A stretch of DNA of 64,000 bases, from NCBI GenBank assembly GCA_049604295.1, contig JBMYTL010000005.1, positions 907 through 64,906 of the forward strand, written 5' to 3'. The notes below the pieces were generated by a model, which saw nothing but the letters and a program-made list of their open reading frames with translations, was not told where the DNA came from and did no database searches. Made by a program: the position numbers and the translations under genes. This document shows, piece by piece, positions 1 through 27,920 of this stretch. This DNA is from Gammaproteobacteria bacterium (GTDB lineage Bacteria; Pseudomonadota; Gammaproteobacteria; JACKNK01). How positions within the stretch are numbered: the first letter of the stretch is position 1; the number at the start of each line of letters is the position of its first letter.

Positions 1-1878
1 TGGGATGAAACCAAGCGATTCAGTGGAACCTACCAGGACGCTGACGTGCGTACGGTTCTGCGTAACGTGCTCGCGCAACAGGGGATCGACGTCATCTTCC
101 GCGAAGGAGTCGAGGGCACGGTCACAGCCCGTTTCGATGAATGGTTGCTTGAGGCGGCGTTCCGAAAGCTGATGGAAGAGGGGGGGCTTGCGTTCACCTA
201 CGATTCCAGCACCCGCTTGGTTACAGTCTCCGCACGCAAGGAATCGATTTCTTCCCTTGAGCTTTACTCCCCGCAGAACGTTACCTTGGCGGAGATCCGG
301 TCGGCCCTGGATGACTACCGGATCGCGGGCGCGGACATCCATTACGACTACAGCACCGGCACCATGGTGATTCGCGGCGATGCCGCCGTGACCCAGCAGG
401 TCATCAAGGTTGCCAAGCATCTTGATGACAGCGTGTCCCTCAAGCTTGAGGCCAGCCTTCGCAAGCAAGAGCTCCAGCGGAAACGGCAGCTTGAGGAATT
501 GCAGATCGCCTCCATGGCGAAAGCGTACGAGCAAACCCAGCTCGAAACCGCGGTTATCCCGCTCCGCTATGCGAACGTGGCGGAGACCAAGACGACCTTC
601 CAGGGCGAGGAGGTCACTCTTCCCGGGATCGAGCAGACACTCAAAACCCTGCTCACCATCGATGAGAGCTTTGTAGCCGGGGGCTCGGCAACCGGCTCCG
701 GCGACGATGATAAGGGCGCCACTTCCAATGGGGGCACCACTGCCATCACCATCAACGGTCAGCCGGGTCGGATTGCCGTGGACGAGCGCACCAACTCCGT
801 GATCGTTCGCGGTACGCCGCAGGTGGTCGCTGATGTGGAGGCGATCGTCAAACGCCTGGACCGGCAGGTTCCGCTGGTGGATATCGAGGTGATGATCGTG
901 CAAGCCGATGCGGGATTGTCCCGCAGCCTGGGTGTGCAGTGGGCCTACGGTCGCGGATTCAGTGCGAACGGTCGTAAGAATTTCGGGGTGAGCACCGGCC
1001 CGAATGCCGGTCAGACCGTCCTTGATCTATCCGAAGAGGCGTCCCAGACCGCGGCCAGCCGTTCCAGTACCACGGTCGGAGTGGGTGGTTCCACCACGAC
1101 CAACACCACCGCTTCCGTAGACCCGATCACGCTGCTGCCGCTGGCCACCTTCGACAGTATTGTCGGGTCGTTCATCTACAACGGCAGTCGGGCCTTCATC
1201 CAGGCGCAGATCAACGCTCTGGCCGAACAGGATAAGGCTGAGATCATAAGTTCACCGCACGTCGTGACCTTGAACAACGTGCCCGCCAAAATCACCAGCA
1301 CCGACAAGCTGCACGTTCCGCTGCAGGGCAAGGAAGGTGGTGAGGCCGAGATTGAGCAGATCGACGCGGGCCTCTCCCTCGATATCACGCCTTCGGTCTT
1401 CGAAGACGATCTGGCCGGAGCCGAGCAGTTGGTCCGCATGAACATCAACGCGCGAAATTCTTCGTTTACCAGTCAGTTCCAGACGACTGAAAAAGAGATC
1501 CAGACCCAGGTGATCCTGCGTAACGGTGGGACCTTCGTGCTTGGTGGTCTTTTCGAAACCCGTCGTGCCGAGGGTGAGGATGGTGTGCCCGGGCTCAAGG
1601 ATATCCCGCTGCTTGGGGCTCTGTTCCGGACCCGCAGTTCCGTCGATAGCCGCGCGGAATCGGTGTTCTTCATCACTCCGACAGTGGTCAACCAGGAAGA
1701 CCTGATTGCCGCGGATGTGGGTGATCGCAAGTTTTTCCGCGAGAACCGCGCCCGCCTGGGTAAGAGTGCTCAGGAATTCATGCTGCGCCAGAACAATCGG
1801 CTGGCGCGAGATACAGAAGACCTACACCGCAAGAGCTACCTGATCGACCTGACGACGGGGCTGGAGGAGGACGAGTGA
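1..1878 (+). CDS. Secretin (outer-membrane ring), 5'-truncated by the window edge; N-domains resemble T3SS SctC
   Basis: Frame is open from base 1 (WDETKRFSG...). Secretin C-domain motifs: IISSPHVVTLNNVPAKI and GGLF...GVPGLKDIPLLGALFR. N3 segment IPLRYANVAETKTTFQGEEVTLPGIEQTLKTLL and RIAVDERTNSVIVRG. Confidence 0.93.
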   Translation, partial: WDETKRFSGTYQDADVRTVLRNVLAQQGIDVIFREGVEGTVTARFDEWLLEAAFRKLMEEGGLAFTYDSSTRLVTVSARKESISSLELYSPQNVTLAEIRSALDDYRIAGADIHYDYSTGTMVIRGDAAVTQQVIKVAKHLDDSVSLKLEASLRKQELQRKRQLEELQIASMAKAYEQTQLETAVIPLRYANVAETKTTFQGEEVTLPGIEQTLKTLLTIDESFVAGGSATGSGDDDKGATSNGGTTAITINGQPGRIAVDERTNSVIVRGTPQVVADVEAIVKRLDRQVPLVDIEVMIVQADAGLSRSLGVQWAYGRGFSANGRKNFGVSTGPNAGQTVLDLSEEASQTAASRSSTTVGVGGSTTTNTTASVDPITLLPLATFDSIVGSFIYNGSRAFIQAQINALAEQDKAEIISSPHVVTLNNVPAKITSTDKLHVPLQGKEGGEAEIEQIDAGLSLDITPSVFEDDLAGAEQLVRMNINARNSSFTSQFQTTEKEIQTQVILRNGGTFVLGGLFETRRAEGEDGVPGLKDIPLLGALFRTRSSVDSRAESVFFITPTVVNQEDLIAADVGDRKFFRENRARLGKSAQEFMLRQNNRLARDTEDLHRKSYLIDLTTGLEEDE

Positions 1879-1947
1879 CCCGGATGTCCATGACATGGCC
1901 GCTCGGCTGTGTGGGGCTGGCGACCTTCAGTCGAGGTGGCTGCTGAT

Positions 1948-2388
1948 ATGCGACCGCTCATCGCGCTCAATTGGGTCGGTGGTACTCTGCTCATCGGGGC
2001 CGCCGTGGTTTACCCGCTGATTGCGAAGACCGTGAATCAGGCCTCCGATGCGGTGGTCGCGGACACGGTTCGCAAGATCGCGGATGCCCAGAACGGTTCT
2101 TATCGCAGCTTCCAGCAGTATATCCTGTTCAGTGGTGAGCCCTCGGAGACCACCCGGGCGTTCAACCGTCTGGGGGTGACGTCATCAGTAGGTGATGATT
2201 ACCTCTACGAGTCGTTCATCGATGAAGAGGGTGCCCTGGTGATACGCGCCCGGGTCAATCCGCGCCGGGTAGTCAAGGATGGCGTGACGCCCAAGGTCTA
2301 CATCTACCGGTCGCGCGGCGAAAACCAGGTGCTGGAGAACGGTTGGAAGCAACTTTCCAAGAACTCCGGAAACCCCGGGTTTTTCTGA
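1948..2388 (+). CDS. Pilin-like membrane-anchored protein lacking a class III cleavage motif
   Basis: ATG at 1948 after GAGGTGG. N-terminal hydrophobic helix followed by a pilin-like alpha1-C stretch (VRKIADAQNGSYRSFQQY). No G|FxxxE motif. Confidence 0.6.
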   Translation: MRPLIALNWVGGTLLIGAAVVYPLIAKTVNQASDAVVADTVRKIADAQNGSYRSFQQYILFSGEPSETTRAFNRLGVTSSVGDDYLYESFIDEEGALVIRARVNPRRVVKDGVTPKVYIYRSRGENQVLENGWKQLSKNSGNPGFF

Positions 2389-3122
2389 TGGCAGTTTGGT
2401 CGCGGACCGCTGGATGCCCCGGACGGAGCGGGGTATCACGTCGTTGCCACTCCCAAGGTGCCTTGCTGTTTCTCTTCGCGGCGGGTTTGCTTGGCGGGTG
2501 CCAGGAGTACAAACCCGACGAGCAGGCACCTGAGCCGGTCGAGCCGAAGGTCCAAGAGGTTGATCCAGCAACGGAAGATCTGGTCCTTGAGCCGCAATGG
2601 TTGAAAGGGGATCGTTGGGTCTGGTCCGATGGATATGGACTCAAGGTCGACAGCAGCGGTCCGGATGGAACCGTTTTCAAGCGGATCGACGACGACAAAC
2701 AATGGTTGAAGCGGCGCGGACTGACGGTGATTGAATCGCAATCCGCGCGCACTCACCGGAAGCTGCTATATAAAACAGGTGACCCAGCGGATATTTTTCC
2801 GCTTAAAATAGGCAACACAGCCGTCTACGAGCGGGAGTACTCCTCGAACGGGGTGCTCCGGGTGCATCGCACGTCGTGGGTGGTCGAGGGGCGGGAAACC
2901 ATCGAAGTGCCCGCGGGTACCTTCGATACATGGCGTCTGGTGCGGCGTTCACGCAGCACGCTCACCGGATGGACAGGTTATGAGCGGTGGTGGTACAGCC
3001 CCGACGTAAGAAACTACGTACGGATGGAGTTTCGTTACGGAGGCGCCCCGGCATCCTCTCGCGTTTTAATGGCTTACACGCTCGCTCCGCGAGTCCAATT
3101 GAATACGGAGTCCCCACGATGA
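2388..3122 (+). CDS. Lipoprotein with a VPAGTF beta-rich domain, pilotin candidate
   Basis: Lipobox LLGG|C and TIEVPAGTFDTWRL motif. Overlaps the stop of the upstream gene and the start of the downstream pilin. Start codon uncertain. Confidence 0.7.
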   Translation: MAVWSRTAGCPGRSGVSRRCHSQGALLFLFAAGLLGGCQEYKPDEQAPEPVEPKVQEVDPATEDLVLEPQWLKGDRWVWSDGYGLKVDSSGPDGTVFKRIDDDKQWLKRRGLTVIESQSARTHRKLLYKTGDPADIFPLKIGNTAVYEREYSSNGVLRVHRTSWVVEGRETIEVPAGTFDTWRLVRRSRSTLTGWTGYERWWYSPDVRNYVRMEFRYGGAPASSRVLMAYTLAPRVQLNTESPR

Positions 3123-3694
3123 ACACCTCTTCCCATATGCGCCGTGCCGCACGGGGTTTCACGCTTATCGAGATCATGGTCGTGGTGGCCGTGATCGGCA
3201 TCCTCGCCGCCATCGGCCTTCCGCAGCTCGGTGCCTACATCAAGACGGCGGAAACCGCCGAGCCTGTCGAACAGTTCGAGCGTATCGGTAAGGCGCTCAC
3301 CGGCTTCGCCAGTGCTCAGACCCAGTCTGTCCCCGACCTGGCCGCGATCATCAACGCCCAGGCCAGTATCCTGCACCCGACCCCTGCGACCGACACCATG
3401 AGCGACATCCTGCCGCACCTGAAATTGCCGGAGGACGGCGAATGGCGCTACGACATCGCAGTGGATGAAACCGCGGGTCTGACTTCGTTCCGGTACTGCA
3501 TCAGTGCTCAGCACATCACTGATGGCACCTACGTGTACTTCAGTAGCGATCGGGTCGATCTTGACGCGGGTGACGCCAATACCCTGACCTGGGAAAACAA
3601 CGTCAACCGCTCCAACCACGTGAACGAAAACACCGGTACGGTGACTGCGGGTGCGTGCTCGGGTACCGCCGGTACGGTGCTGGCCATCAACTAA
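3119..3694 (+). CDS. Type IV pilin, probable major pilin
   Basis: Class III signal RRAARG|FTLIEIMVVVAVIGILAAIGLP, two C-terminal Cys, followed by its own terminator. Confidence 0.92.
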   Translation: MNTSSHMRRAARGFTLIEIMVVVAVIGILAAIGLPQLGAYIKTAETAEPVEQFERIGKALTGFASAQTQSVPDLAAIINAQASILHPTPATDTMSDILPHLKLPEDGEWRYDIAVDETAGLTSFRYCISAQHITDGTYVYFSSDRVDLDAGDANTLTWENNVNRSNHVNENTGTVTAGACSGTAGTVLAIN

Positions 3695-4082: not shown

Positions 4083-5744
4083 ATGAACGTGGCGGGAAAT
4101 CGTTATACCGAATGGAAGTTTCTGGGCCTGGGTGGCACGGCTGCCGTTTACAGTGTCTTGGACAGTGAGCTTGATGAGCGTGTCGCTATCAAGGTGCTCG
4201 ATCCCAAACTTCTGGAAGCGAACCCGTCGCTGCGTGTCATGCTCCGGCAGGAAGTGCTTTCCTCGCGCCACCTGCGGCACACGTACATCGTCGCGGTGCA
4301 CGATTTCTACGATGGTCCAGTACCACCGTTTCCTACCGAGGCCACCAAGCCCAAGACCCTCGACGACGTTCAGGTCGATCCGAGCTCAAGGGGGTTCGGT
4401 GCGGTCATGGACATCATCCCGGGAGTGGTTGAGCTAAAGGACTGGATGGAGGACAACGCGAATGCGTTGTTCAACACATCCAAGGCGCGTTTGTCAGTAC
4501 TGATCAAGATTTTCGAGGCGTTGGAAATCGCCCATGCCCGTGTTGTCCACCGGGATCTCAAGCCGCAAAACATCATGCTGGTCAAAGGCGATATCGATCA
4601 GCCGGTAATCATGGATTTCGGTCTTGCCATGACCGGGGAAGACAACGGCCCGGCCGGACTTACCATCAAGTACGCATCTCCCGAGCAATTCCGCCACTGG
4701 GCCTCGGGTGGGGCGGCATCGGGCATCCGTATCGACAAGCGGTCGGATCTGTTCACCATGGGTGTGATCGCCTTCGAGTTGTTCACCAACCAGATTCCTC
4801 GTCAGGCCATGAAATTCCGTGCCGATCGACGAACGGGCGACATCCGTCCGGTCTTCGATGCGGTCAAGGCGAGCTCCTACAATGCGGCCGTCCCTGCATC
4901 CTTGGATGGGGTCATCGATTCCCTGTTGGCGGACGATCCGGATATGCGGCCTCAGAGCGCCAGTGAAGTCCTTGAGGTGCTCCGTGAGGTACAGCTCATT
5001 GATGAGGTGGCTACCGAAGCGGGTACGGCGGCGGCGCCCCGGGTCACCGTTCCAGGTGGGAAGTTCATTCTGGGTTCGAGTCCGTCGGAAAGCAGTAATC
5101 CCACGGAGAAACCACAGCGCCGCGTGGTCATCGAGGCTTTCGATGTGGACGTTACCCCCGTAACCAATGCGGCCTACCGGGAGTTTCTCACCAGTACCGG
5201 TTGGGAGGTTCCACCGTTCATGGATGATCCGGTCCTGGGTGCGGCGGATCATCCGGTCGTGGGGGTAACCTGGGAGGACGCCAATCGCTACGCTGAGTGG
5301 GTTGGCGGACGTCTGCCTACCGAGGCGCAGTGGGAATATGCCGCGAAGGGCGGTGAAAAACGGGCCTATCCCTGGGGCGCTGAGCCGTGGGACGCGAACC
5401 GGGCCAATATTGATCGCGCCAGTTCAGGGACCACGCCGGTCGGGCGGTTTCCGCGCGGGAACTCCCCGTTTGACCTGGCGGACATGACCGGGAACGTATG
5501 GGAGTGGTGCCAAGACGCATGGTCCGAGGGCTATTACCGTAGCCTTTCCAACGGCGTTGAAGATCCCGTATGTGAGACGGGAGACGGGCCGGATCGCTCT
5601 GTCAGAGGGGGGGCCTACAACACACCTGCTCTGATGGGCCGTTGTTCCGCGCGTTTTCATTTTGAACCTGGGGTTCGCAATCCCTCGGTGGGGTTCCGAG
5701 TGGTATACGATGCCGCCGGTGATTCCGCGGGAGGTCATGAGTAA
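4083..5744 (+). CDS. Hanks-type Ser/Thr kinase fused to a C-terminal FGE-sulfatase (SUMF1) domain
   Basis: Kinase motifs LGLGGTAAVY, VAIKVL, HRDLKPQN, DFGLA, YASPEQ, SDLF. FGE motifs RLPTEAQWEYAAKGG, DMTGNVWEWCQD, RGGAY, GFRVV. Confidence 0.93.
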   Translation: MNVAGNRYTEWKFLGLGGTAAVYSVLDSELDERVAIKVLDPKLLEANPSLRVMLRQEVLSSRHLRHTYIVAVHDFYDGPVPPFPTEATKPKTLDDVQVDPSSRGFGAVMDIIPGVVELKDWMEDNANALFNTSKARLSVLIKIFEALEIAHARVVHRDLKPQNIMLVKGDIDQPVIMDFGLAMTGEDNGPAGLTIKYASPEQFRHWASGGAASGIRIDKRSDLFTMGVIAFELFTNQIPRQAMKFRADRRTGDIRPVFDAVKASSYNAAVPASLDGVIDSLLADDPDMRPQSASEVLEVLREVQLIDEVATEAGTAAAPRVTVPGGKFILGSSPSESSNPTEKPQRRVVIEAFDVDVTPVTNAAYREFLTSTGWEVPPFMDDPVLGAADHPVVGVTWEDANRYAEWVGGRLPTEAQWEYAAKGGEKRAYPWGAEPWDANRANIDRASSGTTPVGRFPRGNSPFDLADMTGNVWEWCQDAWSEGYYRSLSNGVEDPVCETGDGPDRSVRGGAYNTPALMGRCSARFHFEPGVRNPSVGFRVVYDAAGDSAGGHE

Positions 5745-8512
5745 TGCCTGAAGCCTTTAACCGCCCGGAGCTTCGTGACAAGAGCATCGAGCTATTCATC
5801 CACTACCCAGATGGCCGGTTTGAGCGGTTCATCGCGGCAGGCGGTGGTGGGGAGTTGATGATCGGTCGTATGCATGAAACCAGCTTGACGCCGACCCGGC
5901 TGAATCTGGATGACCGCTACCTTTCGCGAAAGCACTGTCGGCTCTTCTGGGACGACGAAAAAGGCTGGATGTTGGAAGATCTCAACAGCCGCAACGGTAC
6001 ACGTTGGTCTGGTGAATCCATTGTGGAACCGGTCCCCGTTCAGGGAGGGATCTCGGTGCAGATCGGTATGACCGCATTACGCATCGTTCCGGGGTCGGAC
6101 GAAAAACCCACGTACTCGACCGCGGCGGCAAAGGGCAGCAACGAGCATGGAGATATGACGGAAATCGCGAGCGCAGATCAACTCAAGGCCAAGGCGGCCG
6201 AGGATTTTCAATCGACCCAGATGTTCAGCGCCCCGCTCGCCGCGGCGGCGTCATCGGGAGACAGTGACGAGACCGTGGTTGGGGGAGCGGCCGCGGATGA
6301 TGCCACGTTGGTCGAGGACGCGGGTATCGATGAGGACGCCACAGCCGTGCAGGCTGCACGAGCAGGGACGGGACCCGACACGGGGGTGGATCTGGATTTC
6401 GGTGAGGAGGACGCGACCGAGGTCGGTGATGGTGGGCTGCCGGAAGCGACCGCCAAGGGCGCGCCATTCGTACCCAACGACGATGTAACTGACGTTGGCG
6501 CGGCCGAGGGCGTGGCCCCTTCCGAGCCCGATGCGGATGCAACGGTTGTCAGTGAAGCGGACGATGTTGATGCGACCGCCGTCAGTGGATCTGAAGACCT
6601 CGATGCAACAACGGTCTCCGGTGGAGACGATGATGAGGCCACTGAGGTGGCTGGCGCTGACCAGGACGGGGTGACCGCTGTCGGGATTGATGTCGAGCCC
6701 GTGGCGTCCGGGAGTACCTCGGGGCGGGCCGCGCGGACAGCCAGTGCGGAACCGTCCGGTTCTACCCAGGGGCCGCCCCCCGGTATCACCGTCGATGACC
6801 TGCCGGACCTGCCGCGCGGCATGGTCAAGTTGGGACTCATGAATCTGTCCGACGCCTCGGCCATGCTGGCGGAGGCCCGCTCCACCTCGGGAACGTTCTT
6901 CCGACTCATGGCTGACAAGCGTTCGGCCCGTCACATCCACCGGATTTACGAGTGGGTCGAGGAGGAATACGGGTACAAGGTCCTGTCCGATACCGACGAG
7001 GTCTATTCGCACGTGGCGACGCTCGATTGGCTACCCGTGGAGCGCGCCCGTTCCAAGGGCTGTCTGGTTCTTGAGGGAGACGATGGGGCCCGGCCCCGGT
7101 TGGCGTGCATCGATCCCTTCGATCTGCGTCTGCTCGACTGGGTCCAACTCCAGGACGACCGTGATTTCGAGGTTTGTGTGGTCACCGCCCAGGCCTTGTA
7201 CGAGACCGTGGAGCGCATCAGCCATACCGCAATGACTGATGACGACGACGAGGTCGGTCTCGCCATCAATATCTCCAAGGAAGAGGAGGAGACGATGGCG
7301 GAGCAGATCACCGAGATCGAGGTTCCCAAGATCGTGAACTTCGTCCTGCACCGCGCATCAATCGCCGGTGCCTCGGATATCCATATCGAACCCACGGAGG
7401 AACGTCTGCTCGTACGTTTGCGCGTGAACGGCATCCTTTACGAGGAACGCTCTCTGCCCCGTGGCTACATCCCTGAAGTGACGTCACGCCTGAAGATCAT
7501 GTCCGGCATGAACGTGGCGGAAAAACGTCGTCCCCAGGATGGTCGCATAGGTGTCGCGATCCGCGGCAAGCCTATTGACGTGCGCGTCTCGACCTATCCC
7601 ACGGTGCATGGGGAGAAGGTCGTTATGCGTCTATTGGACAAGTCCGCGTTGCGGCCATCACCCGAGGCGCTCGGTCTGCTCGATCGTGATCTGAGGCTGC
7701 TCAAGGACAAACTGCACGCACCGTACGGCCTCATCATGATTTCCGGGCCGACCGGTTCGGGTAAGACAACCACGCTCTATTCCTGCCTGGGCAGTATCGA
7801 CAAGCAGTCCAAGAATGTTCTGACCGTCGAGGACCCGGTCGAATACCAGATGGGGGGCGTGCACCAGATGCAGGTCAACCAGAAAATCGGGCTCACGTTC
7901 GCAAGCGGTCTACGTACGATCCTGCGCCAGGACCCCGACGTCATCATGGTGGGTGAGTGCCGTGACTCCGAGACCGGCGGTATGGCGATTCAGGCATCCC
8001 TTACCGGTCACGTGGTGTTCTCCACGATTCATACCAACGATGCCGTGGGCGTGGTCTCACGCCTGATCGACATGGGTATCGAGCGCTTCCTTGTGGCCAG
8101 TGCCCTGACCTTGGCCATCGCGCAGCGTTTGGTGCGTGAGATATGTCCCCATTGTCGGGCGGAAGTGACCGGCCAGGAAATCATCGACAAACTGGCGAAG
8201 GATGGGATCTCACGTGAACGTCTGGATCAGCTCGGCGTGGATATCGATGACGAAATGGAGTACGCCGAGGGCAAAGGCTGCAAGCACTGTCGGCAGACCG
8301 GGTACGGCGGACGCCGCGCGGTGTTCGAGGTGTTCGAGATCGACGAGTCCGTGCGCAGCCTGATCGCTTCCGATGAGTTCACCGATGCGCGGCTGAGGGA
8401 ACTGGCTCGTAACAGCGGTATGACCACCCTGCTCAGCCATGGCTTGAAGCTGGTCGATGACGAGGTCACCACCTTCGCCGAGGTGATCCGGGTGCTCGGG
8501 GAGACCACCTGA
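5744..8512 (+). CDS. PilB/GspE-family assembly ATPase with N-terminal FHA domain and acidic Thr-repeat linker
   Basis: FHA motifs IGR, LSRKH, SRNGT. ATPase motifs ASDIHIEP, GPTGSGKT, TVEDPVE, LRQDPDVIMVGE, STIHTND and the CPHC...CKHC zinc motif. Confidence 0.95.
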   Translation: MPEAFNRPELRDKSIELFIHYPDGRFERFIAAGGGGELMIGRMHETSLTPTRLNLDDRYLSRKHCRLFWDDEKGWMLEDLNSRNGTRWSGESIVEPVPVQGGISVQIGMTALRIVPGSDEKPTYSTAAAKGSNEHGDMTEIASADQLKAKAAEDFQSTQMFSAPLAAAASSGDSDETVVGGAAADDATLVEDAGIDEDATAVQAARAGTGPDTGVDLDFGEEDATEVGDGGLPEATAKGAPFVPNDDVTDVGAAEGVAPSEPDADATVVSEADDVDATAVSGSEDLDATTVSGGDDDEATEVAGADQDGVTAVGIDVEPVASGSTSGRAARTASAEPSGSTQGPPPGITVDDLPDLPRGMVKLGLMNLSDASAMLAEARSTSGTFFRLMADKRSARHIHRIYEWVEEEYGYKVLSDTDEVYSHVATLDWLPVERARSKGCLVLEGDDGARPRLACIDPFDLRLLDWVQLQDDRDFEVCVVTAQALYETVERISHTAMTDDDDEVGLAINISKEEEETMAEQITEIEVPKIVNFVLHRASIAGASDIHIEPTEERLLVRLRVNGILYEERSLPRGYIPEVTSRLKIMSGMNVAEKRRPQDGRIGVAIRGKPIDVRVSTYPTVHGEKVVMRLLDKSALRPSPEALGLLDRDLRLLKDKLHAPYGLIMISGPTGSGKTTTLYSCLGSIDKQSKNVLTVEDPVEYQMGGVHQMQVNQKIGLTFASGLRTILRQDPDVIMVGECRDSETGGMAIQASLTGHVVFSTIHTNDAVGVVSRLIDMGIERFLVASALTLAIAQRLVREICPHCRAEVTGQEIIDKLAKDGISRERLDQLGVDIDDEMEYAEGKGCKHCRQTGYGGRRAVFEVFEIDESVRSLIASDEFTDARLRELARNSGMTTLLSHGLKLVDDEVTTFAEVIRVLGETT
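6266..6682 (+). repeat. Intragenic peptide repeat: about ten D/E-x-T-x-V units, five at an exact 11-aa period
   Basis: DETVV, DATLV, DATAV, DATEV, DVTDV, then DATVV, DATAV, DATTV, EATEV, GVTAV with the Thr residues 11 aa apart. Confidence 0.85.
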
Positions 8513-14470: not shown

Positions 14471-14496
14471 TTCCGTGAGTCAAATGGATCTGAACC

Positions 14497-20233: not shown

Positions 20234-20311
20234 AATGCTTCCCGACCTGCATGCCCGACGCTCTGACGTCGTTGGCTCTGCCCGCGGACCGCGGCCTATG
20301 GAGGCGTTTTG

Positions 20312-22177
20312 ATGGCCGAGCGTGACGGCAAGCAGTCCTTCCGTTTCGACCAAAGCGTCTACGAACGACCGTTGGGCAACTACCGGTGCGGCCGCGGCGC
20401 TGACTGGGATACCCCGTGTTGGCAGGGACCTGATGCGAAGGGCCGCTGCGGTGGATGCAGTGAGTGCACGCCCATCCGCAAGGGAGACGGCTGGCAATGC
20501 CAACGGCCCAAGCATGCCGGTGGCCCCTGCAAGGAGGGACCAAGGCCTGACGGCAGTTGTTGCAAACAACAGCCGCCTTGCACCCCGGTTCCGACGCTGC
20601 GTGCTTGGCGGGGACGGATTTCGGCCCTGGTGGTGGTGTTGATCCTCGCGGCACTGGGCGTTTTCGCCAATCACGGGTCTCAGTCCGGTGCGGGGCTGCT
20701 GGCTCTGGAGCCCGGTGCACTATCGAGTGTTCATGCGGGATTCACGCGCGAGAAGGGGTGCACGTCCTGTCACGAGGCCCATGGAGGTTCGGCGACCAGT
20801 TGGTTGGCTTCGGTCTTCTCGGACAGCGACCCCAGTGCCCAGTGCCAACAGTGCCATGCCTTCGAGGGCCCCGCCGATGCGGCACACAACAATGCCGAGG
20901 TTCACGACGGTGAGGGTCTCGCCTGCACGCTCTGCCACACTGAACACCAGGGAGAGGATGCGGACGTGGCCGCGGTACCTGATGGCACCTGCGCGAACTG
21001 TCATGACCCGCATATCGATCGTTTCGAGGACAACCATCCCGGATTTTCAGAGGGCTTTCCGCATCGACGCCCCGGGGTCATCCAGTTCGATCACACGACC
21101 CACATTTCCAGTTATTTCAGTGATCCCGAGTGGACTGGAAAGCCCGGGCGGGACGCGGAATTTGCCGAGAGGGCCAGTCAAAGCTGCACGGTCTGTCACC
21201 AGGTCGATGGCGCGACGCGCGAGGTCCTGCCCCGGCCCTATGAGCAGATCTGTGGGCGCTGTCACGATCAGCAGGTTGCGGCCAACCCGCTGTTCCTGTT
21301 CCGCCCTGACGAGATGACCGTGGCGGGTGCCATGGTGCTGGGCATGCACCCGGAAGACGCTGACGAAGACGAGTATCTGGAGCGTCAGGCCGAGCTGTTC
21401 CAATCCATAGTGGATGAAGGACCGGACCCATTGGCGGAACCACTGGCCTTCGGTAGCGAGGTCGACGAGGATGCTCCGCACCCGGCGGTAACGCTGCTCA
21501 GTGGCATGGACATGTCCATGCTGGTCGCGACCTTCGCGGCCTGGGCCGAGGAGGAGGAGCCGGAAGGCCCCGAGTCCGAACTGCTTCCTTCGAGCGGCTG
21601 GATCGGTGGCTATGATCCTGATGGAAACCAGGCCTTGCATTACCGGCCTTCCCGCCATGGCGATCCGGTTCTGAAAGCCTGGTTCGAAACACTTTCCAGC
21701 CTGCGCGCGGGCGCGGACGAAGAACGGGCCGAGCATGCCACCGTCGCTCTTGAAACCCTTCTTGACGCCGATTCCGGGCCTGGAAGTTGCGCGAAATGCC
21801 ACCGAGCGGGTATCGCCCGGCCCGAACCCTCAGCCACCGGTGCGGTGCTTTGGAAGCGCGCCCGACTCGGAACGGGCGGGCACACGCGTTATTCCCACGG
21901 TCCACACCTGAACCTTGTCGACAGTGGTTCCGGTTGCACCGAGTGCCATGGGATCAATGACGAGGCCGCATATTCCGACTACTTCGACGGGGTAGAGCGG
22001 GACGCGACTGATTACGCGAGCAACTTCTCACCCATCGCGAAAGATTCGTGCAGCCGTTGCCACCGCGAAGGTGTGGTGGATAACGGTTGCCAGCTTTGTC
22101 ACCAGTATCACCGTTCACCCGGATTCCGGAAGCAGTTCACCGACAAGGGGATGCCCCATGTATCAAACAAGGAATAA
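20312..22177 (+). CDS. Membrane-anchored decaheme c-type cytochrome with a Cys-rich N-terminal domain
   Basis: Ten CxxCH (CTSCH, CQQCH, CTLCH, CANCH, CTVCH, CGRCH, CAKCH, CTECH, CSRCH, CQLCH) after one TM; ten non-heme Cys before the TM. Confidence 0.92.
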   Translation: MAERDGKQSFRFDQSVYERPLGNYRCGRGADWDTPCWQGPDAKGRCGGCSECTPIRKGDGWQCQRPKHAGGPCKEGPRPDGSCCKQQPPCTPVPTLRAWRGRISALVVVLILAALGVFANHGSQSGAGLLALEPGALSSVHAGFTREKGCTSCHEAHGGSATSWLASVFSDSDPSAQCQQCHAFEGPADAAHNNAEVHDGEGLACTLCHTEHQGEDADVAAVPDGTCANCHDPHIDRFEDNHPGFSEGFPHRRPGVIQFDHTTHISSYFSDPEWTGKPGRDAEFAERASQSCTVCHQVDGATREVLPRPYEQICGRCHDQQVAANPLFLFRPDEMTVAGAMVLGMHPEDADEDEYLERQAELFQSIVDEGPDPLAEPLAFGSEVDEDAPHPAVTLLSGMDMSMLVATFAAWAEEEEPEGPESELLPSSGWIGGYDPDGNQALHYRPSRHGDPVLKAWFETLSSLRAGADEERAEHATVALETLLDADSGPGSCAKCHRAGIARPEPSATGAVLWKRARLGTGGHTRYSHGPHLNLVDSGSGCTECHGINDEAAYSDYFDGVERDATDYASNFSPIAKDSCSRCHREGVVDNGCQLCHQYHRSPGFRKQFTDKGMPHVSNKE

Positions 22178-23927
22178 ACGCTCATCAAGGCCCGCTTGGC
22201 GTGTGCTGTGCGGCCTCGCTTTGCTGGCCGCCCTGTCGGCACCGGCAAACGCTGCCCAACATGGGGGGGCGACCGCCACTGATCCCCACGCCGAGGTGTT
22301 CAGCGAGGAGCAGTTTCCCAGCGCTTCCAAGTGCGCGGGTTGTCATCAACAGATCTATGACGAGTGGAGCAGTTCGAATCACGCGTATGCGGGAATCTCG
22401 CCGATGTTCCACAAGTTCGAGCAGAAGATCAGCGATCTCGCGCCGACCATCGGTAATTTCTGTGTGCGTTGTCACATGAGCGTCGGTACCACCCTGGGTG
22501 AAGATCGGGCTGCGCCTCTGTGGGAACGCAGTCAGGTCAGTCGTGAGGGCGTGACCTGCATCACCTGTCACCGGGTGAAACAGACCTATGGCAAGGTCAA
22601 CGGGGAACGGCGCATCGAGCCCGGTTCCATCTACGAGCCGGTGTATGGCCCGTACGATGGCGACACGGTCGCGGAGGTGGTCAAAAACCCCGCGGCCTAC
22701 AAGGTGGCCGTCAACGATGAGCAGCGCGGAACGAAGATCCACACGGCCGCGATCAAGTTCGAGCAGATATCCAAGTCCGAGTTCTGTGTCTCCTGTCACC
22801 AGGTTGCGGTGAATCTCGGGATCAAACTCGAGGTGGTATGGGACCAGTACCGGAACTCACCGGCCCATGCGGAGGGCACCACCTGTCAGGATTGCCACAT
22901 GGGCAAAGTCCCCGGAGTGGCAGCGGGCTACGAGAAGGGACCGTCGGCCATCGTCGGCGGTAAGGAGATCAACCCTGATCGCGATCACCACAACCATGCC
23001 TTCTACGGTCCGGGCTATCCGATTGCCCATCCCGGCGTGTTCCCCCACCATCCGGAGGCGGAAAACTGGTCCATGGAAGAGTGGCTGCAGTTCGATTACC
23101 GCGCCGGTTGGGGTACCGATGAATTCGAGGAGAAGATCGACGAAGGTACGCTGAAGGTCACCTTCCCCGAGGTTTGGGAGGACGTCGGAGACCGCGAGGA
23201 GGCGCGCGAGATCATTGAGGAGAACCTTGAGAAGATCGAGGAGAAGCGCGAGCAGCGCCAACAGGTCATGGAAAACGGTTCACGCATCGATGGGCCGTTC
23301 TTCGCGGGCGACCCCAAGGCGGGCGAGGATCTGAAGTTCCACTACACCGTGACCAATACCGATCCCGGTCATAACCTGCCTTCTGGTTCCCTGGGGGCTC
23401 AGCCGGAGATCTGGCTCAATGTCGCCCTGGTCGATCCCGATGGCGAGCGCATCTGGGAATCCGGTTACGTCGACAGCATCGGAGACATGGCGGACCTGCA
23501 CTCCCACGATGTGCGAACCGGCAAGGTTGCCCACGACGATCAGCTGTTCAACCTGCAGACGAAGTTCCTGACCACCAACGTCAAGGGTACGGACAGGGAG
23601 ATGTATCTGCCCGTCAATGTCGACATCGACCAGCTTCCCTTCCTGCGGCCGCCGGCCCAGCCCGTGACCGTAATGAACCATCCGCCATTCGTGCGCATGG
23701 AAGGCCGTTCGCTGCCCCCGCTCGCCAGTCGCGATGCCCGCTACAGCGTGCCCGCGGAGCTTCTTGGCAAGCCCGGTACCTACCGGTTGTCGGTGCGCAT
23801 GCGCAGTCGGGCGGAACCGATTTACTTCATGCGGTTCGTAGGCGCGACCAACGACATGGAGCGGGCCATGAATGAATGGATGCTCGACATCCACCCGTAC
23901 ACCGTTGAATTCGAAATCAAGGGCTGA
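22158..23927 (+). CDS. Exported pentaheme c-type cytochrome with a heme-free C-terminal domain
   Basis: Signal peptide ending ANA|A; CAGCH, CVRCH, CITCH, CVSCH, CQDCH; C-terminal VTNTDPGHNLPSG beta-rich domain. Confidence 0.9.
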   Translation: MYQTRNKRSSRPAWRVLCGLALLAALSAPANAAQHGGATATDPHAEVFSEEQFPSASKCAGCHQQIYDEWSSSNHAYAGISPMFHKFEQKISDLAPTIGNFCVRCHMSVGTTLGEDRAAPLWERSQVSREGVTCITCHRVKQTYGKVNGERRIEPGSIYEPVYGPYDGDTVAEVVKNPAAYKVAVNDEQRGTKIHTAAIKFEQISKSEFCVSCHQVAVNLGIKLEVVWDQYRNSPAHAEGTTCQDCHMGKVPGVAAGYEKGPSAIVGGKEINPDRDHHNHAFYGPGYPIAHPGVFPHHPEAENWSMEEWLQFDYRAGWGTDEFEEKIDEGTLKVTFPEVWEDVGDREEAREIIEENLEKIEEKREQRQQVMENGSRIDGPFFAGDPKAGEDLKFHYTVTNTDPGHNLPSGSLGAQPEIWLNVALVDPDGERIWESGYVDSIGDMADLHSHDVRTGKVAHDDQLFNLQTKFLTTNVKGTDREMYLPVNVDIDQLPFLRPPAQPVTVMNHPPFVRMEGRSLPPLASRDARYSVPAELLGKPGTYRLSVRMRSRAEPIYFMRFVGATNDMERAMNEWMLDIHPYTVEFEIKG

Positions 23928-23938
23928 GGGGCAGAACC

Positions 23939-25483
23939 ATGGAAAAACGTACACACACGCACCAGTGGCCCCGTCTGGCACTCGCTCCATTGTCCGCGGC
24001 CCTGTTGGCCGCCGGTCTTACAGCCTCCGTGCCCGCGCTGGCCGCCGGGGGGCACGATGACAGCCCCCCGCGCATGTCGCCGGCTGCCGCCCCCGTCGAT
24101 CACGACGAAGAGGCGTTTGGTCCTGACCCGAGCTATGAAGAGAAGCCGTACGATATCGAGGCGCAACTGGAGATCTATGGTGGCAAGCGGGCCGTCAACA
24201 ATCCCCGTCCAGCCATCGAGATCGGTCAGCCCATCTATGTGGCCGGGCAACTGGAGACACCCGGTCATGGCTGGGGTGCCAAGAACCCCAGCGCGCACGC
24301 TTTCTCCGTTTACGGCGACTGGCGCAATGCCGTGGCCTGGAACGACAACGGTGTCGTCGAAACGGGACAGGTCGCCACGCGTTTGAATCTCGACCTCGAC
24401 TGGAAGCTCACAGGCACCGAGCGCCTGCATGCCTCCGTGCGCCCCCTGGACAACAATGGAGACTTCACGCGCTGCGAAGTGGCGGGGGATACGCCCGACG
24501 ACTGTCAGCTCAAATTCGACCTCAATCCCGACACCCTGTTCTTTGAGGGAGACCTGGGCGCGATCAGTGCGGGCTTCACGGACGAATACAGCAGCTTTGA
24601 CCTGCCGATCGCCTTCGGGAAGATGCCCTTGCTGTTCCAGAACGGCGTTTGGATGGAGGACATCATCACCGGTGTTGCCTTCACGCTTCCCGCCCTGAAC
24701 AGCCCGTCCATGGATATCTCGAACATGGACATCACCTTCCTGGCGGCCTTCGATGACGTCAGCTCCGGCGGGATGATCGAACCCACGGGCCAGGTGGCCG
24801 AGCACGGCGCCAACCTGTTCGCCGTCACGGCGTTCGTCGAGGCCAACCAGGGATACTGGGAGTTCGGTTACGGTTTCACCGACGGTGAGGACAACCTCGA
24901 TGACCAGGACTATCACAACATCACCGCCGCGTTCACCAAACGCTACGGTGGCTGGCTTTCGAACAGCGTGCGCGTGATACACAACTTCGGTCAGGATCGG
25001 ATCGGCGGGGCGGCTGAGACCGCGGACGGCACATTGTTCCTGATCGAGAACTCCCTGATCACAAGCAAGCCGCTCACCCTGGTTCCGTATGCCAACCTGT
25101 TTCTCGGGCTCGACACGCCCCAGTCCCTGGCGCGCGATGCCGGTGCGGGTGGCGTCCTGAAGAACACCGGTATCAACTTTGAGACCGATGGCCTGACCGG
25201 CTTCCCCACGCTTGATGCGACCGCCCGCAATACCTGGGGTGGCGCGTTGGGTATCCAGTACCTGTTCAACCTCGATCAGCAGATCGTGTTCGAGGTGGCC
25301 ACCGTGCAGACCATTGGCGATGCCGCCGGGCGCAATGCACCTGGCGAGCAGTACGGGGTGGGCCTGCGCTATCAGTATGTGCTCGATGAGAAATGGCTGT
25401 TGCGCGCCGACGCCATGTTCGGGTCGCGGGAGAATCTCGAGAATATCTCGGGTATCCGCTTCGAGATCCGGCGGAAGTTCTGA
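23939..25483 (+). CDS. Outer-membrane beta-barrel (porin-like) protein
   Basis: Signal peptide ending ALA|A, many amphipathic beta segments (RLNLDLDWKL, YWEFGYGF, GALGIQYLF, YGVGLRYQY), terminal GIRFEIRRKF with C-terminal Phe. Confidence 0.78.
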   Translation: MEKRTHTHQWPRLALAPLSAALLAAGLTASVPALAAGGHDDSPPRMSPAAAPVDHDEEAFGPDPSYEEKPYDIEAQLEIYGGKRAVNNPRPAIEIGQPIYVAGQLETPGHGWGAKNPSAHAFSVYGDWRNAVAWNDNGVVETGQVATRLNLDLDWKLTGTERLHASVRPLDNNGDFTRCEVAGDTPDDCQLKFDLNPDTLFFEGDLGAISAGFTDEYSSFDLPIAFGKMPLLFQNGVWMEDIITGVAFTLPALNSPSMDISNMDITFLAAFDDVSSGGMIEPTGQVAEHGANLFAVTAFVEANQGYWEFGYGFTDGEDNLDDQDYHNITAAFTKRYGGWLSNSVRVIHNFGQDRIGGAAETADGTLFLIENSLITSKPLTLVPYANLFLGLDTPQSLARDAGAGGVLKNTGINFETDGLTGFPTLDATARNTWGGALGIQYLFNLDQQIVFEVATVQTIGDAAGRNAPGEQYGVGLRYQYVLDEKWLLRADAMFGSRENLENISGIRFEIRRKF

Positions 25484-25564: not shown

Positions 25565-26833
25565 ATGGAGTTTGATCTCGTTCAATGGCTGGGGAGTGCG
25601 GTGATACTCCTGATCGGAGCCTATGTCGTCTCCCTGCTCGTGGGCTTCTGGTCGGGACAGGCCCGTGCCCGGCGCCAGTTTGCCCTTGAGCAGAAGCTTC
25701 TCGGTGCGCGTATCGAGCAGGCTACCAGTCCTCTGGGGCAGGTGGGTGGCAGCTCAGGGCCCGCTTGGTCCGGCCTGCGCAAGTTCATCATCAAGGCTAA
25801 GGTTCTGGAAGCTGAGAGCATCTGCTCGTTTTATCTGGCGCCCCATGATGCGCGGCCCCTGCCGCCTTTCTTCCCGGGCCAGTTTCTGACCTTCCAGTTG
25901 GACCTGCCCGGTAATCGCGGCAGCCTCACCCGTTGTTACTCGCTATCGGATGCGCCGGTGCATCCGGATTATTACCGGGTCACCATCAAGCGCATTGCGC
26001 CTCCCAGGGATAAGCCGGAACTGCCCCCCGGAAAGGGCTCGAGCCATTTCCACGATGACCTGCGTGAAGGGCAGGTCATCAACGTCAAGGCCCCAGGTGG
26101 CCATTTCTATCTTGATGTAGAGAGCGACAAACCGGTTGTTCTCATCGGCGGCGGAATCGGCCTGACCCCGGTGCTCAGCATGCTCAACTATCTGTGCCAT
26201 CAGGAGTCGGAGCGCGAGATCTGGTTCTTCTACGGGGTCCGCAACAGCAGCGAGCACGTGATGAAAGAGTTTCTTGCCAGACAGGCGGAGGAACACCCGA
26301 ACGTCAAGCTCAATATCTGCTATTCCGATCCGCTCGAAGGTGACCAGAAAGGCACGGATTATCAACACGCCGAGCGCGTCTCCGTGGATCTGTTCAAGCG
26401 GCTCCTGCCGTCGAACAATTACAGTTTCTATATCTGCGGCCCACCGCCGATGATGGCCTCACTCACCGAGGGGCTCGCGGAATGGGGCGTTCCGGAGGCG
26501 GATGTCCACTTCGAGGCATTCGGTCCGGCGTCGGTCAAAAAGGTCGCCCATTCCGAGCAGGAATCAAAGGTTCACGAAGGCCTGGAAGTGCGGTTTGCGC
26601 GCAGCGATAAGACCCTGGTCTGGGATGGGGCATCCAGCTCCATCCTCGAATTTGCCGAGAGCAACGGTATCAATCTCGACTGTGGCTGCCGGGCGGGTGG
26701 ATGCGGAAGCTGTGCCACCGCGATTCAGGCAGGCAGCGTTGAGTACGTCACGGAGCCGGATGCCGACGTCGAAAAAGGCCACTGCCTGACCTGCGTGTCC
26801 ATCCCGAAGACCGCGCTCACACTCGATGCCTGA
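25565..26833 (+). CDS. Membrane-anchored FAD/NAD(P)-binding oxidoreductase with C-terminal [2Fe-2S] ferredoxin (FNR/PaaE/Hcr-like)
   Basis: N-terminal TM; RCYSL, GGGIGLTP, YICGPPPM, EAFG; CRAGGCGSC...LTC. Confidence 0.92.
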   Translation: MEFDLVQWLGSAVILLIGAYVVSLLVGFWSGQARARRQFALEQKLLGARIEQATSPLGQVGGSSGPAWSGLRKFIIKAKVLEAESICSFYLAPHDARPLPPFFPGQFLTFQLDLPGNRGSLTRCYSLSDAPVHPDYYRVTIKRIAPPRDKPELPPGKGSSHFHDDLREGQVINVKAPGGHFYLDVESDKPVVLIGGGIGLTPVLSMLNYLCHQESEREIWFFYGVRNSSEHVMKEFLARQAEEHPNVKLNICYSDPLEGDQKGTDYQHAERVSVDLFKRLLPSNNYSFYICGPPPMMASLTEGLAEWGVPEADVHFEAFGPASVKKVAHSEQESKVHEGLEVRFARSDKTLVWDGASSSILEFAESNGINLDCGCRAGGCGSCATAIQAGSVEYVTEPDADVEKGHCLTCVSIPKTALTLDA

Positions 26834-26870
26834 GTCATGGCCGATCCACGCAGCATGAGACAGTCCTGAC

Positions 26871-27920
26871 ATGCCCACACTCAGCAATCCCCAGGGTTCC
26901 CTGTTCATAGAGCTCGATATCGCTCCCAGCATGGAGGACACCGTCACCGGATGGTTGGCCCAGCAGCAGATGGGACATGCGCGCACGGCCATCAACGAGC
27001 AGGTGATCGCCGGTAACGGCGTTATCCGAGGCGCTGATGGTGATGTTCTGCACTGTTCATTCGCCAGTGCGGGCGCGGCGTTTGATGTTGCCGTGGGGAT
27101 ACTGGAATGGTTCCGGGAAGCCTCCATGGATCCCGAGCAGGATATCGATGGAAGTGCCTGCATCGCGCTGGCCTACGGACCGGTGGAGGTCTCGGATGCC
27201 TGCCAGATCAGCGGGGAGGGACTGACCTCCGCGGGTGTGTTACTCACCTCGGCGGGGCCCGGAGAAGTCGTTGTCTCAGCTTCCGCGGCGGATGCGCTGG
27301 CCGGGCACGAGCGCGCCTCTGAGTTGGTGGAAATCGACAACCCTCCCGAGGCCGGTGCACGGCATCTGGTGGTCGATGCCCGCCAGCGCGGCGAAAGCGC
27401 GACCCGCCATATGGATCCCCCCGTTTCGGTTCCCTCGGGCTCTGCGGACGCCCCCCCGGAGGCGCAGACGGTCGATGCGGAGGATTCCGCTGATCTTGAC
27501 ATCAGCGAACTGGAGGATGCGGCTGGAGAGGCCTCTGTTGATGCTGGATCGGGTGGTGTCCCGGACGGCGCGGATTCCTCCCGCTCAGAGACCGCCGGGC
27601 CGCGAATCTCGCTGGTCATTGGCGACAAGACCTATCGCTTCGGTGCGGATACCAACCCGGTGTGGATTGGGCGGTCGAGTGATTGTCACGTCGTCATCCC
27701 CCATCCCCATGTGTCCCGTCGACACGCCCAGCTGCAGTGGAACGGCAGCGAAGTCACACTGGTGAACCTCAGTGCCAACGGCAGTTCAGTGCGCTTCGAT
27801 GATGAGGCCGAGGGGGATATTCACCAGGCCCCGGTGAGCCTGAGCCGAGGCGGCGAGATCGCCCTGGCCGGTACCTTCCAGGCGGATTCCGAACGCGTGA
27901 TCCGGTTCACCATCGAGTGA
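26871..27920 (+). CDS. Degenerate class III nucleotidyl-cyclase-like domain fused to an FHA domain
   Basis: GDVLHCSF...AAFDVA...IALAYGPV...AGPGEVVVS follows the cyclase layout. Acidic linker, then FHA motifs IGR, VSRRH, SANGS. Confidence 0.75.
   Translation: MPTLSNPQGSLFIELDIAPSMEDTVTGWLAQQQMGHARTAINEQVIAGNGVIRGADGDVLHCSFASAGAAFDVAVGILEWFREASMDPEQDIDGSACIALAYGPVEVSDACQISGEGLTSAGVLLTSAGPGEVVVSASAADALAGHERASELVEIDNPPEAGARHLVVDARQRGESATRHMDPPVSVPSGSADAPPEAQTVDAEDSADLDISELEDAAGEASVDAGSGGVPDGADSSRSETAGPRISLVIGDKTYRFGADTNPVWIGRSSDCHVVIPHPHVSRRHAQLQWNGSEVTLVNLSANGSSVRFDDEAEGDIHQAPVSLSRGGEIALAGTFQADSERVIRFTIE

Follow-up and report, generated by a model that had tools for sequence, protein, structure and literature searches.

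The DNA analysed here, 64,000 nucleotides long and called the window below, comprises positions 907-64906 of contig C5 in a gammaproteobacterial genome assembly (G000) that is 76% complete and consists of 189 contigs. Across positions 1-27920 it carries an uninterrupted series of open reading frames (ORFs) on the + strand, in which we recognise two modules lying head to tail: module A, a type IV filament system that resembles type II secretion systems (T2SS) and is plausibly switched by phosphorylation, and module B, an autonomous redox cassette with multihaem cytochromes. An earlier note on this DNA had taken the whole run for one dedicated machine in which a filament apparatus exports or positions cytochromes and is switched on by threonine phosphorylation. 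The gene content, domains, conservation and synteny of the two halves, and the fact that they occur separately in other genomes, lead us to regard the modules as independent, a reading that we hold to be probable. The domain calls come from Pfam and NCBIfam profile searches, with NCBIfam supplying the equivalog cut-offs, and they confirmed the secretin, ATPase, platform, Ser/Thr kinase, peptidoglycan-acting, Fe-S and flavin genes that the note had named. Its continuous + strand run also stands, with a count of 23-24 genes in place of 23 because nothing supports the small ORFs at 3651-4069 as genes. No Rfam family was found in the window, whose DNA is present in seawater-metagenome runs.

The separability of the modules is evident from the loci in which the cassette occurs. 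One genome per species was queried with g18, the Fe-S protein of the cassette, and the best 80 of 129 relatives, each with at most 10 kb of flank, were taken as cassette loci. When 28 window proteins were compared with these loci by tblastn, g17-g23 turned up together repeatedly, and the filament genes (g01-g16) were found in 0 of the 80, bar stray weak matches in three (g06-like sequences of 27-28% identity in L028 and L029, and Sel1 repeats in L015). Sequence of at least 3 kb was available upstream of the cassette in 55 of the loci, and of at least 8 kb in 37. All-against-all clustering of their 1157 ORFs returned exactly seven recurrent families, g17-g23, each in 44-70 loci, and the next real family was present in 11; the cassette counts are minimum values, since some gene calls were lost to antisense ORFs. 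Such long antisense ORFs also lie opposite real genes in the window (minus strand 23822-25519, 565 aa, opposite g22; 473 aa opposite g18), where, as a by-product of a G+C content of about 60%, they misled the greedy ORF picker. According to the labels in the records, the loci span Alphaproteobacteria (mostly Rhodospirillales-type), Nitrospinota (18 loci), Burkholderiales/Nitrosomonadales, Gammaproteobacteria and a few others, and the flanking genes vary by lineage. In the betaproteobacterial loci L003-L006, L008, L009 and L071 the cassette adjoins CcmF and CcmH on the opposite strand. The patchy distribution and changing neighbours of module B, an autonomous 7-gene cassette, suggest that it moves laterally.

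The filament genes show the converse pattern. We compared the window with a genome of the same genus (G001), with two of the same family (G002, 90% complete in 8 contigs, and G003, 86% complete), and with 11 distant filament loci from 10 genomes of an even sample of 400 genomes of the phylum, searched at E<=1e-130 for the ATPase subfamily and at E<=1e-60 for g18. Orthologue-level matches of the ATPase were found in G001, G002 and G003. Both genomes of the same family preserve the gene order of the filament cluster along its full length, secretin to g16, with no cassette gene beside it and no g18 or g21 orthologue anywhere in either genome. The 11 distant loci keep the same conserved filament blocks and have no cassette gene, so that cassette genes occur in 0 of these 13 other filament clusters and the filament cluster stands without an adjacent cassette in 12 other genomes. 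In the phylum sample the ATPase subfamily was present in 11 genomes, g18 in 15 and both in 3 (G073 and G108, of one genus, and G235), and in these three the modules always lie on different contigs. Because the two halves are unlinked in other genomes, the idea of one machine is not supported, and their adjacency is at most a genus-level arrangement.

Within module A, two adjacent genes suggest how the filament motor may be controlled. The gene g06 (4083..5744, on the + strand like all genes of both modules) encodes a Hanks-type Ser/Thr kinase joined to an FGE-sulfatase-fold domain (Pkinase 9.4e-25; FGE-sulfatase 8.9e-54); its translation has the catalytic motifs VAIK, HRDLKPQN, DFG and SPE and no transmembrane (TM) segment. 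The next gene, g07 (5744..8512), encodes an ATPase in which an FHA domain and an acidic linker of Thr repeats precede MshEN and GspE-like ATPase domains (T2SSE 2e-121; FHA 1.8e-11; MshEN 2.4e-6). The FHA domains of g07 and of g24, a gene at the far end of the cassette, show GR, SxxH and NG motifs in their translations, these being, with the kinase motifs, the signatures by which Hanks kinases and phosphothreonine-binding FHA domains are defined. The kinase gene adjoins the ATPase gene in 9 of the 11 distant loci and has the same position in G002 and G003; a contig of G001 holds the C-terminal end of the kinase alone, directly beside the ATPase. Of 15 subfamily ATPases, 12 bear an FHA domain, as do 76 of the 120 best database matches. 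One of the database matches (P0063) naturally joins a protein-kinase domain to MshEN and the T2SSE ATPase, and the tree places it as sister to the FHA-bearing ATPase of Azospirillum rugosum.

The linker between the FHA and ATPase domains is acidic and otherwise unconserved. Across 88 such linkers the motif [DE]AT[VILM][VILA] occurs in 91 copies, compared with 2.3 ± 1.5 (maximum 7) in 300 shuffles, and 41 of the linkers have at least one copy; the count is inflated by internal repeats, yet the motif recurs in linkers that are otherwise unalike. In the g07 linker 10 [DE]xTx[VILA] sites fall within aa 139-300. Downstream of g16 in G002 there is a weak PP2C-like ORF (E 7e-4, 19.7 against a cut-off of 20.3) with a 71% identical copy in G003, and tblastn found no counterpart in the source genome, itself 76% complete. 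Because the kinase adjoins an FHA-ATPase whose linker carries a repeated acidic Thr motif, control of module A by Thr phosphorylation is plausible, and to that extent the switch proposed earlier holds up. In such a scheme the cytoplasmic kinase g06 would phosphorylate the repeated Thr motif in the disordered g07 linker, the FHA domain of g07 itself would bind the resulting phosphothreonines, and this binding might gate assembly of the ATPase hexamer or its docking, much as a kinase, a phosphatase and an FHA protein control type VI secretion.

As to the kind of machine, g07 scored 509.9 with the GspE model TIGR02533 (cut-off 630.25), 478 with PilB (676) and 55 with the TadA family TIGR03819 (373), while GspE relatives from the same class (n = 7) scored 633-720 with TIGR02533. 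Validated GspE proteins, 44-47% identical to it, are its nearest canonical relatives in genomes of the class. The FHA subfamily, together with close relatives, formed a clade of its own (support 100/99) in a maximum-likelihood tree, apart from 7 validated GspE proteins and from the paralogues in the source genome. The secretin g01 (1..1878; Pfam Secretin 7.5e-39 and Secretin_N) likewise scored 224 with PilQ (cut-off 284), 165 with GspD (351) and 211 with SctC (238), and the platform protein g08 (8512..9555; T2SSF 2.4e-49), a short form of the GspF/PilC family, 274 with GspF (424) and 285 with PilC (700). All parts of module A compared with equivalog models (GspE, PilB, GspD, PilQ, GspF, GspG and GspK) thus lie below the cut-offs, which bears out the earlier view of the system as non-canonical; judged from these profiles, module A appears to be a divergent, T2SS-like type IV filament system. 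Its cluster in the window has one T2SSE gene and five prepilin-type or GspK-like genes, with no retraction ATPase (PilT) in it or in the 13 other clusters, and profile searches recognised nothing resembling GspC in module A. PilT-type ATPase genes are found on two other contigs, C36 and C57. The one at C57:9998-12073 encodes a PilT-family ATPase (NCBIfam 408 bits over residues 335-676) with an N-terminal extension of about 330 residues, and a further long T2SSE paralogue of 795 aa lies on C15 (PilB model 516, cut-off 676).

The candidate major subunit of the filament is g04 (3140..3694), a prepilin-type (pseudo)pilin with an N_methyl match (3.3e-8) at residues 52-77 of the ORF 2987-3694 and a GspG score of 35 (cut-off 88.85). 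Three minor (pseudo)pilins follow further on, g13 (13853-14470; N_methyl 2.6e-10), g14 (14497-15162; 3.6e-9) and g15 (15159-15851; 1e-8), and then a GspK-like protein, g16 (15692-16480, with its likely start near 15845; GspK model E 3e-4, 20 against 130); this block (13853..16480) is conserved in other filament loci. Of five pilins counted earlier, four are therefore matched by N_methyl, and the fifth is the weakly GspK-like g16. One major and four minor pilins including GspK, together with ExeA/GspB, make up the layout of a T2SS. Upstream of the window an ExeA/GspA-like gene (AAA_22 and PG_binding domains) is followed by a GspB-like gene and then by the secretin, which starts 123 nt before window position 1, so that the locus does continue upstream as had been noted. 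The GspB-like gene is split by an assembly break in a (PT)n repeat, between the left end of contig C34 and C5:1-906. Read in reverse, C34 ends with the ExeA/GspA-like gene and the N-terminal half of the GspB-like protein; C5 starts in the same repeat, the protein ends in an SNase-like domain and an intergenic gap precedes the secretin. The ExeA-like and GspB-like genes are also present in four distant filament loci.

The remaining genes of module A comprise envelope proteins and candidate alignment proteins. A small membrane protein without assigned family, g02 (1909..2388; one TM-like segment), has homologues in synteny in G002, G003, L114-L116 and L120, and the probable lipoprotein g03 (2490..3122; Pfam DUF3108_like E 5.7e-5, below cut-off) has them at 35-50% identity in 8 of the 11 distant loci (all except L113, L117 and L121) and at 47% in G002 and G003. 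A candidate PilM/GspL-like alignment protein, g09 (9682..11646), is matched faintly by PilM (NCBIfam E 2.6e-4, 20 against 133; Pfam PilM_2 E 0.041) and conserved in synteny; it is followed by a candidate GspM/PilO-like protein, g10 (11649..12470; faint T2SSM E 0.022, one N-terminal TM segment), which adjoins g09 in other filament loci too. The two peptidoglycan-acting genes, for a lytic transglycosylase (g11, 12467-13081; SLT 6.6e-32) and for a Sel1 and SPOR protein (g12, 13078-13833; Sel1 3.6e-20, SPOR 1.7e-9), were seen, among the genomes compared, in this one alone and are absent from the clusters of G002 and G003 and from the 11 distant loci.

Module B occupies 16674-26833 (g17-g23), with g24 as an accessory gene. 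It is read most simply as an outward chain that starts at NAD(P)H and ends at a pentahaem protein in the periplasm, with the direction and the substrate deduced from the parts. Electrons would enter at g23 (25565..26833), an FAD/NAD(P)H oxidoreductase anchored by an N-terminal TM segment and ending in a 2Fe-2S ferredoxin domain (NAD_binding_1 6.6e-20; Fer2 1.8e-11; FAD_binding_6). They could then pass from its FAD and 2Fe-2S centre to the four [4Fe-4S] clusters of g18 (17634..19388), a cytoplasmic protein without signal peptide that joins cNMP-binding-like domains (cNMP_binding 2.3e-18) to a four-cluster domain of Fer4 families with DmsB/HydN/HybA/NrfC-type matches over residues 427-578. The cNMP fold had already been seen in the note. 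From g18 they would reach two b haems of g19 (19385..20233), a membrane protein of a new family that has no Pfam match at E<=1 and no NCBIfam family. Its putative role as a di-haem b electron-transfer subunit is suggested by two H-x13-H pairs in TM helices (H86/H100 and H259/H273, in two helices), invariant in 38 sequences. A search of 1.84 billion representatives placed 411 clusters in this family at E<=1e-30. One protein of 757 aa (P0365) combines a g18-like part (46% identical over 569 aligned columns including gaps) with the N-terminal part of a g19-like protein, and is either a real g18-g19 fusion or a frameshift or gene-calling artefact.

Beyond the inner membrane the chain would continue through the decahaem cytochrome g20 (20309..22177), the soluble tetrahaem g17 and the pentahaem g21, which together have the 19 CxxCH motifs counted previously (10, 4 and 5). 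All 10 motifs of g20 are conserved, as are 8 Cys of its cytoplasmic Cys-rich N-terminus, which precedes a single TM anchor (residues 102-120) and has no Pfam match even at loose thresholds. A c554-like periplasmic cytochrome, g17 (16674..17612; Cytochrome_C554 4.4e-14) has a signal peptide and was recovered by ORF clustering in 70 of the 80 cassette loci. The periplasmic g21 (22155..23927), of type A, is 67-80% identical across classes; its AlphaFold2 model (predicted local distance difference test, pLDDT, 81.6) consists of a globular haem cap, in which the 5 CxxCH are invariant, and a C-terminal beta-sandwich stem. The neighbouring g22 (23939..25483) is predicted to be an outer-membrane beta-barrel of about 18 strands (pLDDT 85.5), in agreement with the barrel called earlier, and its best Foldseek matches are MOMP, OccK/OprD, AlgE and chitoporin (E 1e-11 to 1e-8). 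At the end of the chain g21 may act in the periplasm on a small substrate admitted by this channel, a sulfur or chalcogen compound or a chelated metal being the candidates.

The genes g21 and g22 are always paired and of two types; they stand before g17 in Nitrospinota and after g20 elsewhere, sometimes inverted. A second pair in the source genome, of type B, lies on contig C139 (L098, 1-5037), 42% and 29% identical to g21 and g22, respectively, and adjoins a rhodanese gene (140-622) and a Pyr_redox_2 flavoprotein gene (661-1788, minus strand), a context that hints at a sulfur-related role of this protein family. The gene g24 (26871..27920; FHA 5.3e-12) encodes an FHA protein with an unassigned N-terminal domain. 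It confirms that FHA domains lie at both ends of the run; the cyclase fold proposed for 26871-27410 was not borne out, with no Guanylate_cyc match at Pfam E<=10 and nothing relevant among PDB sequences. Searches of PDB sequences with g20, g22 and the g24 N-terminus gave nothing usable. By tblastn g24 is matched at 29-41% identity in L002-L009 and L058, nine of the 80 cassette loci, and ORF clustering recovered it in 5 (L003, L004, L006, L009 and L058), so by these matches it appears to be a cassette accessory in some Beta- and Gammaproteobacterial lineages. Downstream of the cassette the window has a coiled-coil-like ORF of no family (28141-28890) and two GTPase genes (28992-30692, MMR_HSR1 with two TM segments; 30586-31989, MMR_HSR1 and DUF697); no homologues of the genes of 28141-31989 were seen in the 80 cassette loci.

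Several observations weigh against the independence of the modules. They share a strand and are separated by a gap of 193 nt (16481..16673); a simple scan of 15800-17000 found no promoter-like site in this gap and no + strand terminator-like site, which leaves room for read-through transcription. A Logan contig of run X1, possibly the source sample, bridges the junction and spans 10000-18401 with 0 differences; contigs of X2 and X3 cover the stretch in small pieces only. An assembly chimera at the g16/g17 junction was ruled out, as the two assemblies agree and depth is even. In G001 contig C116 ends 50 nt after g16 and C77 begins inside g17, ends that are compatible with the same order, and that genome may have the same adjacency. 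The modules co-occur above the base rate in the phylum sample (3/11 compared with 12/389), with two of the three genomes being kin of one genus and not independent cases, and the FHA domain of g24 at the cassette end makes cross-talk with the kinase possible in this organism. One machine of 23-24 genes would also have a precedent in Shewanella, which needs its T2SS to place MtrC and OmcA. Against such a machine stand the loci and genomes described above, in which the halves occur apart, and the predicted location of the cassette proteins: g17 and g21 in the periplasm, g22 in the outer membrane as a barrel, and g19, g20 and g23 anchored in the inner membrane, so that none is predicted to need a T2SS. 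We also considered g24 as a link between the halves and rejected it, since an FHA-type ATPase was present in 0 of the 5 g24-bearing genomes. Taken together, the single machine is very improbable. A search for conserved flanks on either side of the cassette, as an insertion would leave, failed because the genes that follow g16 in G002 and G003 map to another contig of the source genome. For module A by itself, a surface pilus serving adhesion, DNA uptake or motility is the alternative to a secretion pseudopilus. The MshEN domain of g07, the best secretin and platform models (PilQ and PilC), the conserved partner protein whose SNase-like C-terminal domain could suit DNA handling and the PilT-type ATPases elsewhere in the genome speak for a pilus, and the ATPase tree, which contained no labelled PilB or MshE, is a further point against our assignment. 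The best model of the ATPase is nevertheless GspE, its nearest canonical relatives are GspE proteins, and the pilin set with the ExeA/GspB-like genes has the T2SS layout. Because of the one major and four minor pilins, the ExeA/GspB-like genes and the lack of a retraction ATPase in the 13 other clusters, a secretion-type pseudopilus is the likelier product, and a surface pilus seems unlikely, if by no means negligible.

For module B, one alternative is an electron conduit across the outer membrane, with g21 inserted in or docked through g22, close to the trans-envelope conduit that the note had envisaged. In its favour, the cytochrome gene is strictly paired with the barrel gene and moves with it, and a conduit agrees with the long chain of 19 haems and with weak Pfam matches to MtrC/MtrF domains II and IV, all below cut-off. 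The inner-membrane part of that proposal fits the cassette. The barrel does not, being of an 18-strand channel type without an MtrB-like sheath: the 50 best Foldseek matches of g22 are all 16-18-strand substrate channels and MtrB is not among them. In addition, g21 is globular and related to the soluble periplasmic MccSep and a soluble c552, and the cassette families hold no lipoprotein or extracellular cytochrome gene. A periplasmic reductase fed via an outer-membrane channel fits better, and a conduit through the barrel is improbable. The cassette might also run inward, with g21 oxidising a donor that is imported or already periplasmic, for instance a reduced sulfur compound, and electrons passing through g17, g20, g19 and g18 to g23, thus making NAD(P)H in lithotrophs such as Nitrospinota. 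The frequency of the cassette in that phylum (18 of 80 loci), the second g21/g22 pair beside a rhodanese and a Pyr_redox_2 flavoprotein and the origin of the relative 5ze8 in a purple sulfur bacterium are consistent with inward flow. From general bioenergetics, inward transfer through a di-haem b protein would oppose the membrane potential and NAD(P)+ reduction would be uphill with most donors of this kind; the cassette has no proton- or ion-coupling subunit and most of its carriers are labelled as heterotrophic Alphaproteobacteria. We therefore consider inward flow quite unlikely. The outward chain to a periplasmic reductase has its own weak points, in that sequence patterns are the basis for haem b binding, for the flow direction and for what the Cys-rich domain of g20 does, and a Foldseek search with the g21 model gave weak beta-sandwich matches only (TM-score 0.1-0.17).

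Our literature searches turned up no account of a 7-gene cassette of this kind or of a GspE-type system controlled by a kinase and an FHA domain. Tentatively, with a confidence somewhat short of even, we propose that both are undescribed: an NAD(P)H-fed electron-export cassette, and a T2SS-like lineage switched by multisite Thr phosphorylation of a linker. If this is correct, electrons in the cassette would pass from the flavoprotein and the four-cluster Fe-S protein by way of the new di-haem b protein into 19 c-type haems. The chain would finish in either of two interchangeable terminal modules, each a pentahaem protein plus channel, and would reduce a periplasmic or extracellular substrate, for example sulfur or chalcogen species or chelated metals, without energy conservation. 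Phosphorylation of the filament motor's linker would be read by the motor's own FHA domain. Had one filament machine served to place an electron conduit, the principle would have been new; the evidence points to a neighbourhood accident in one genus. The cassette is the more interesting module because of its breadth and conservation, being widespread in Nitrospinota, marine and freshwater Rhodospirillales-type Alphaproteobacteria, and Beta- and Gammaproteobacteria. It occurs in abundant water-column lineages, and its parts suggest a route by which cytoplasmic reducing power might reach the periplasm, with a bearing on sulfur, selenium, iodine or metal redox cycling in oxic waters. Module A could serve as a compact model for post-translational control of GspE-type motors, because two adjacent genes encode a kinase, an FHA domain as reader and a candidate target motif. 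Among cultured organisms, Minwuia thermotolerans carries the cassette and Azospirillum rugosum the ATPase.

Compared to known systems, module A shares with the canonical Gsp T2SS the secretin, a GspE-like ATPase with a Zn-type CxxC pair, a GspF-like platform, one major and four minor pseudopilins (a GspK-like protein among them), candidate GspL/M-like proteins and, as in systems with ExeA/ExeB, an AAA and peptidoglycan-binding ExeA-like protein with a GspB-like partner. It differs in its gene order and in the addition of the Hanks kinase, the FHA domain and the Thr-repeat linker. Module A does not fit type IVa pili, since PilB, PilQ, PilC and PilM all score below equivalog level and PilT-type genes lie on other contigs only, nor the Tad pilus, to judge by the TadA-family score of 55 (cut-off 373) against 510 for GspE. 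For the MSHA pilus the comparison covered the MshEN domain, present in g07 (E 2.4e-6), and the MshL model (score 88, cut-off 250). One of two near parallels in regulation is the Thr-phosphorylation pathway of type VI secretion systems; in that of Pseudomonas aeruginosa the Hanks kinase PpkA, the PP2C phosphatase PppA and Fha1 gate assembly. Module A would follow the same logic, with a Hanks kinase, an FHA domain and, in G002 and G003, a weak PP2C-like ORF. It is a different machine, with the FHA domain and candidate target sites in the motor ATPase itself and a kinase that has a cytoplasmic FGE-sulfatase-fold domain in place of a membrane or periplasmic sensor. An N-terminal FHA domain on the motor ATPase of a type IV filament machine, as in g07, has been described in KilF, the central ATPase of the Tad-like Kil apparatus of Myxococcus xanthus, for which a role in signalling was proposed (bioRxiv 10.1101/2021.02.25.432843). 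KilF is a CpaF/Tad-type ATPase, the Kil pilins and secretin are of another type than those of module A, and passages on Kil in that preprint mention no kinase, which module A has.

The cassette resembles MtrCAB and Pcc conduits in that multihaem cytochromes are encoded with an outer-membrane barrel, and it is distinct from them, as the note had recognised. MtrB is a 26-strand barrel, whereas g22 has about 18 strands and a substrate-channel fold. No MtrA-like decahaem is present to thread the barrel, g20 being anchored in the inner membrane (g20 and g21 reach 30 bits with the DmsE-family decahaem model, cut-off 192), and there is no surface lipoprotein cytochrome, as the seven cassette families hold no further cytochrome. 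In its paired His, four-cluster Fe-S partner and NAD(P)H flavoprotein, g19 recalls NarI with NarH, FdnI with FdnH, and MsrQ with its flavin reductase; unlike these di-haem b subunits it would be partnered by cNMP-domain and decahaem proteins, and no quinone site is evident. The best solved relative of g21 is the pentahaem c552 of Thermochromatium tepidum (5ze8; profile search of the PDB, E 1.2e-13), to which it is related in three regions including a beta-sandwich loop; c552 has 435 aa compared with about 560 for g21, and about 100 residues align well.

The same search matched g21 remotely to MccSep (9wt8/9wt9; E 0.002-0.003). The Geobacter protein MccSep/ExtKL reduces polysulfide in the periplasm and combines a haem cap with an Ig-like stem; its authors, who list 637 homologues, define the family by Sec or Cys at U325 (bioRxiv 10.1101/2025.11.18.688581), a criterion that would leave out g21-like sequences. 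The GHxxPxG loop of g21 aligns to MccSep 310-347, and the position of Sec325 is occupied by Ser (type A) or Phe (type B), with Cys in 0 of 53 sequences; because of this Ser or Phe at the catalytic Sec position, g21 lies outside the family as its authors define it. No Cys stands in the stretch aligned with C239, the distal ligand of haem 2 in MccSep, where the alignment is weak (domain score 9.9 bits), and g21 reaches 47 bits with the NCBIfam ExtKL model (cut-off 250). The ExtHIJKL cluster of Geobacter sulfurreducens encodes the rhodanese ExtH, the barrel ExtI, which is discussed as a possible substrate channel, and ExtKL (PMC5877670). The inner-membrane and cytoplasmic partners of the cassette (g23, g18, g19 and g20) are unlike those of the ext cluster, and its carriers are mostly aerobes and not Desulfobacterota. 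What the two have in common is that a pentahaem protein, built of haem cap and Ig-like stem and bearing a GHxxPxG loop, is encoded beside an outer-membrane barrel, and the second g21/g22 pair of the source genome, next to its rhodanese, echoes the rhodanese-barrel-ExtKL order.

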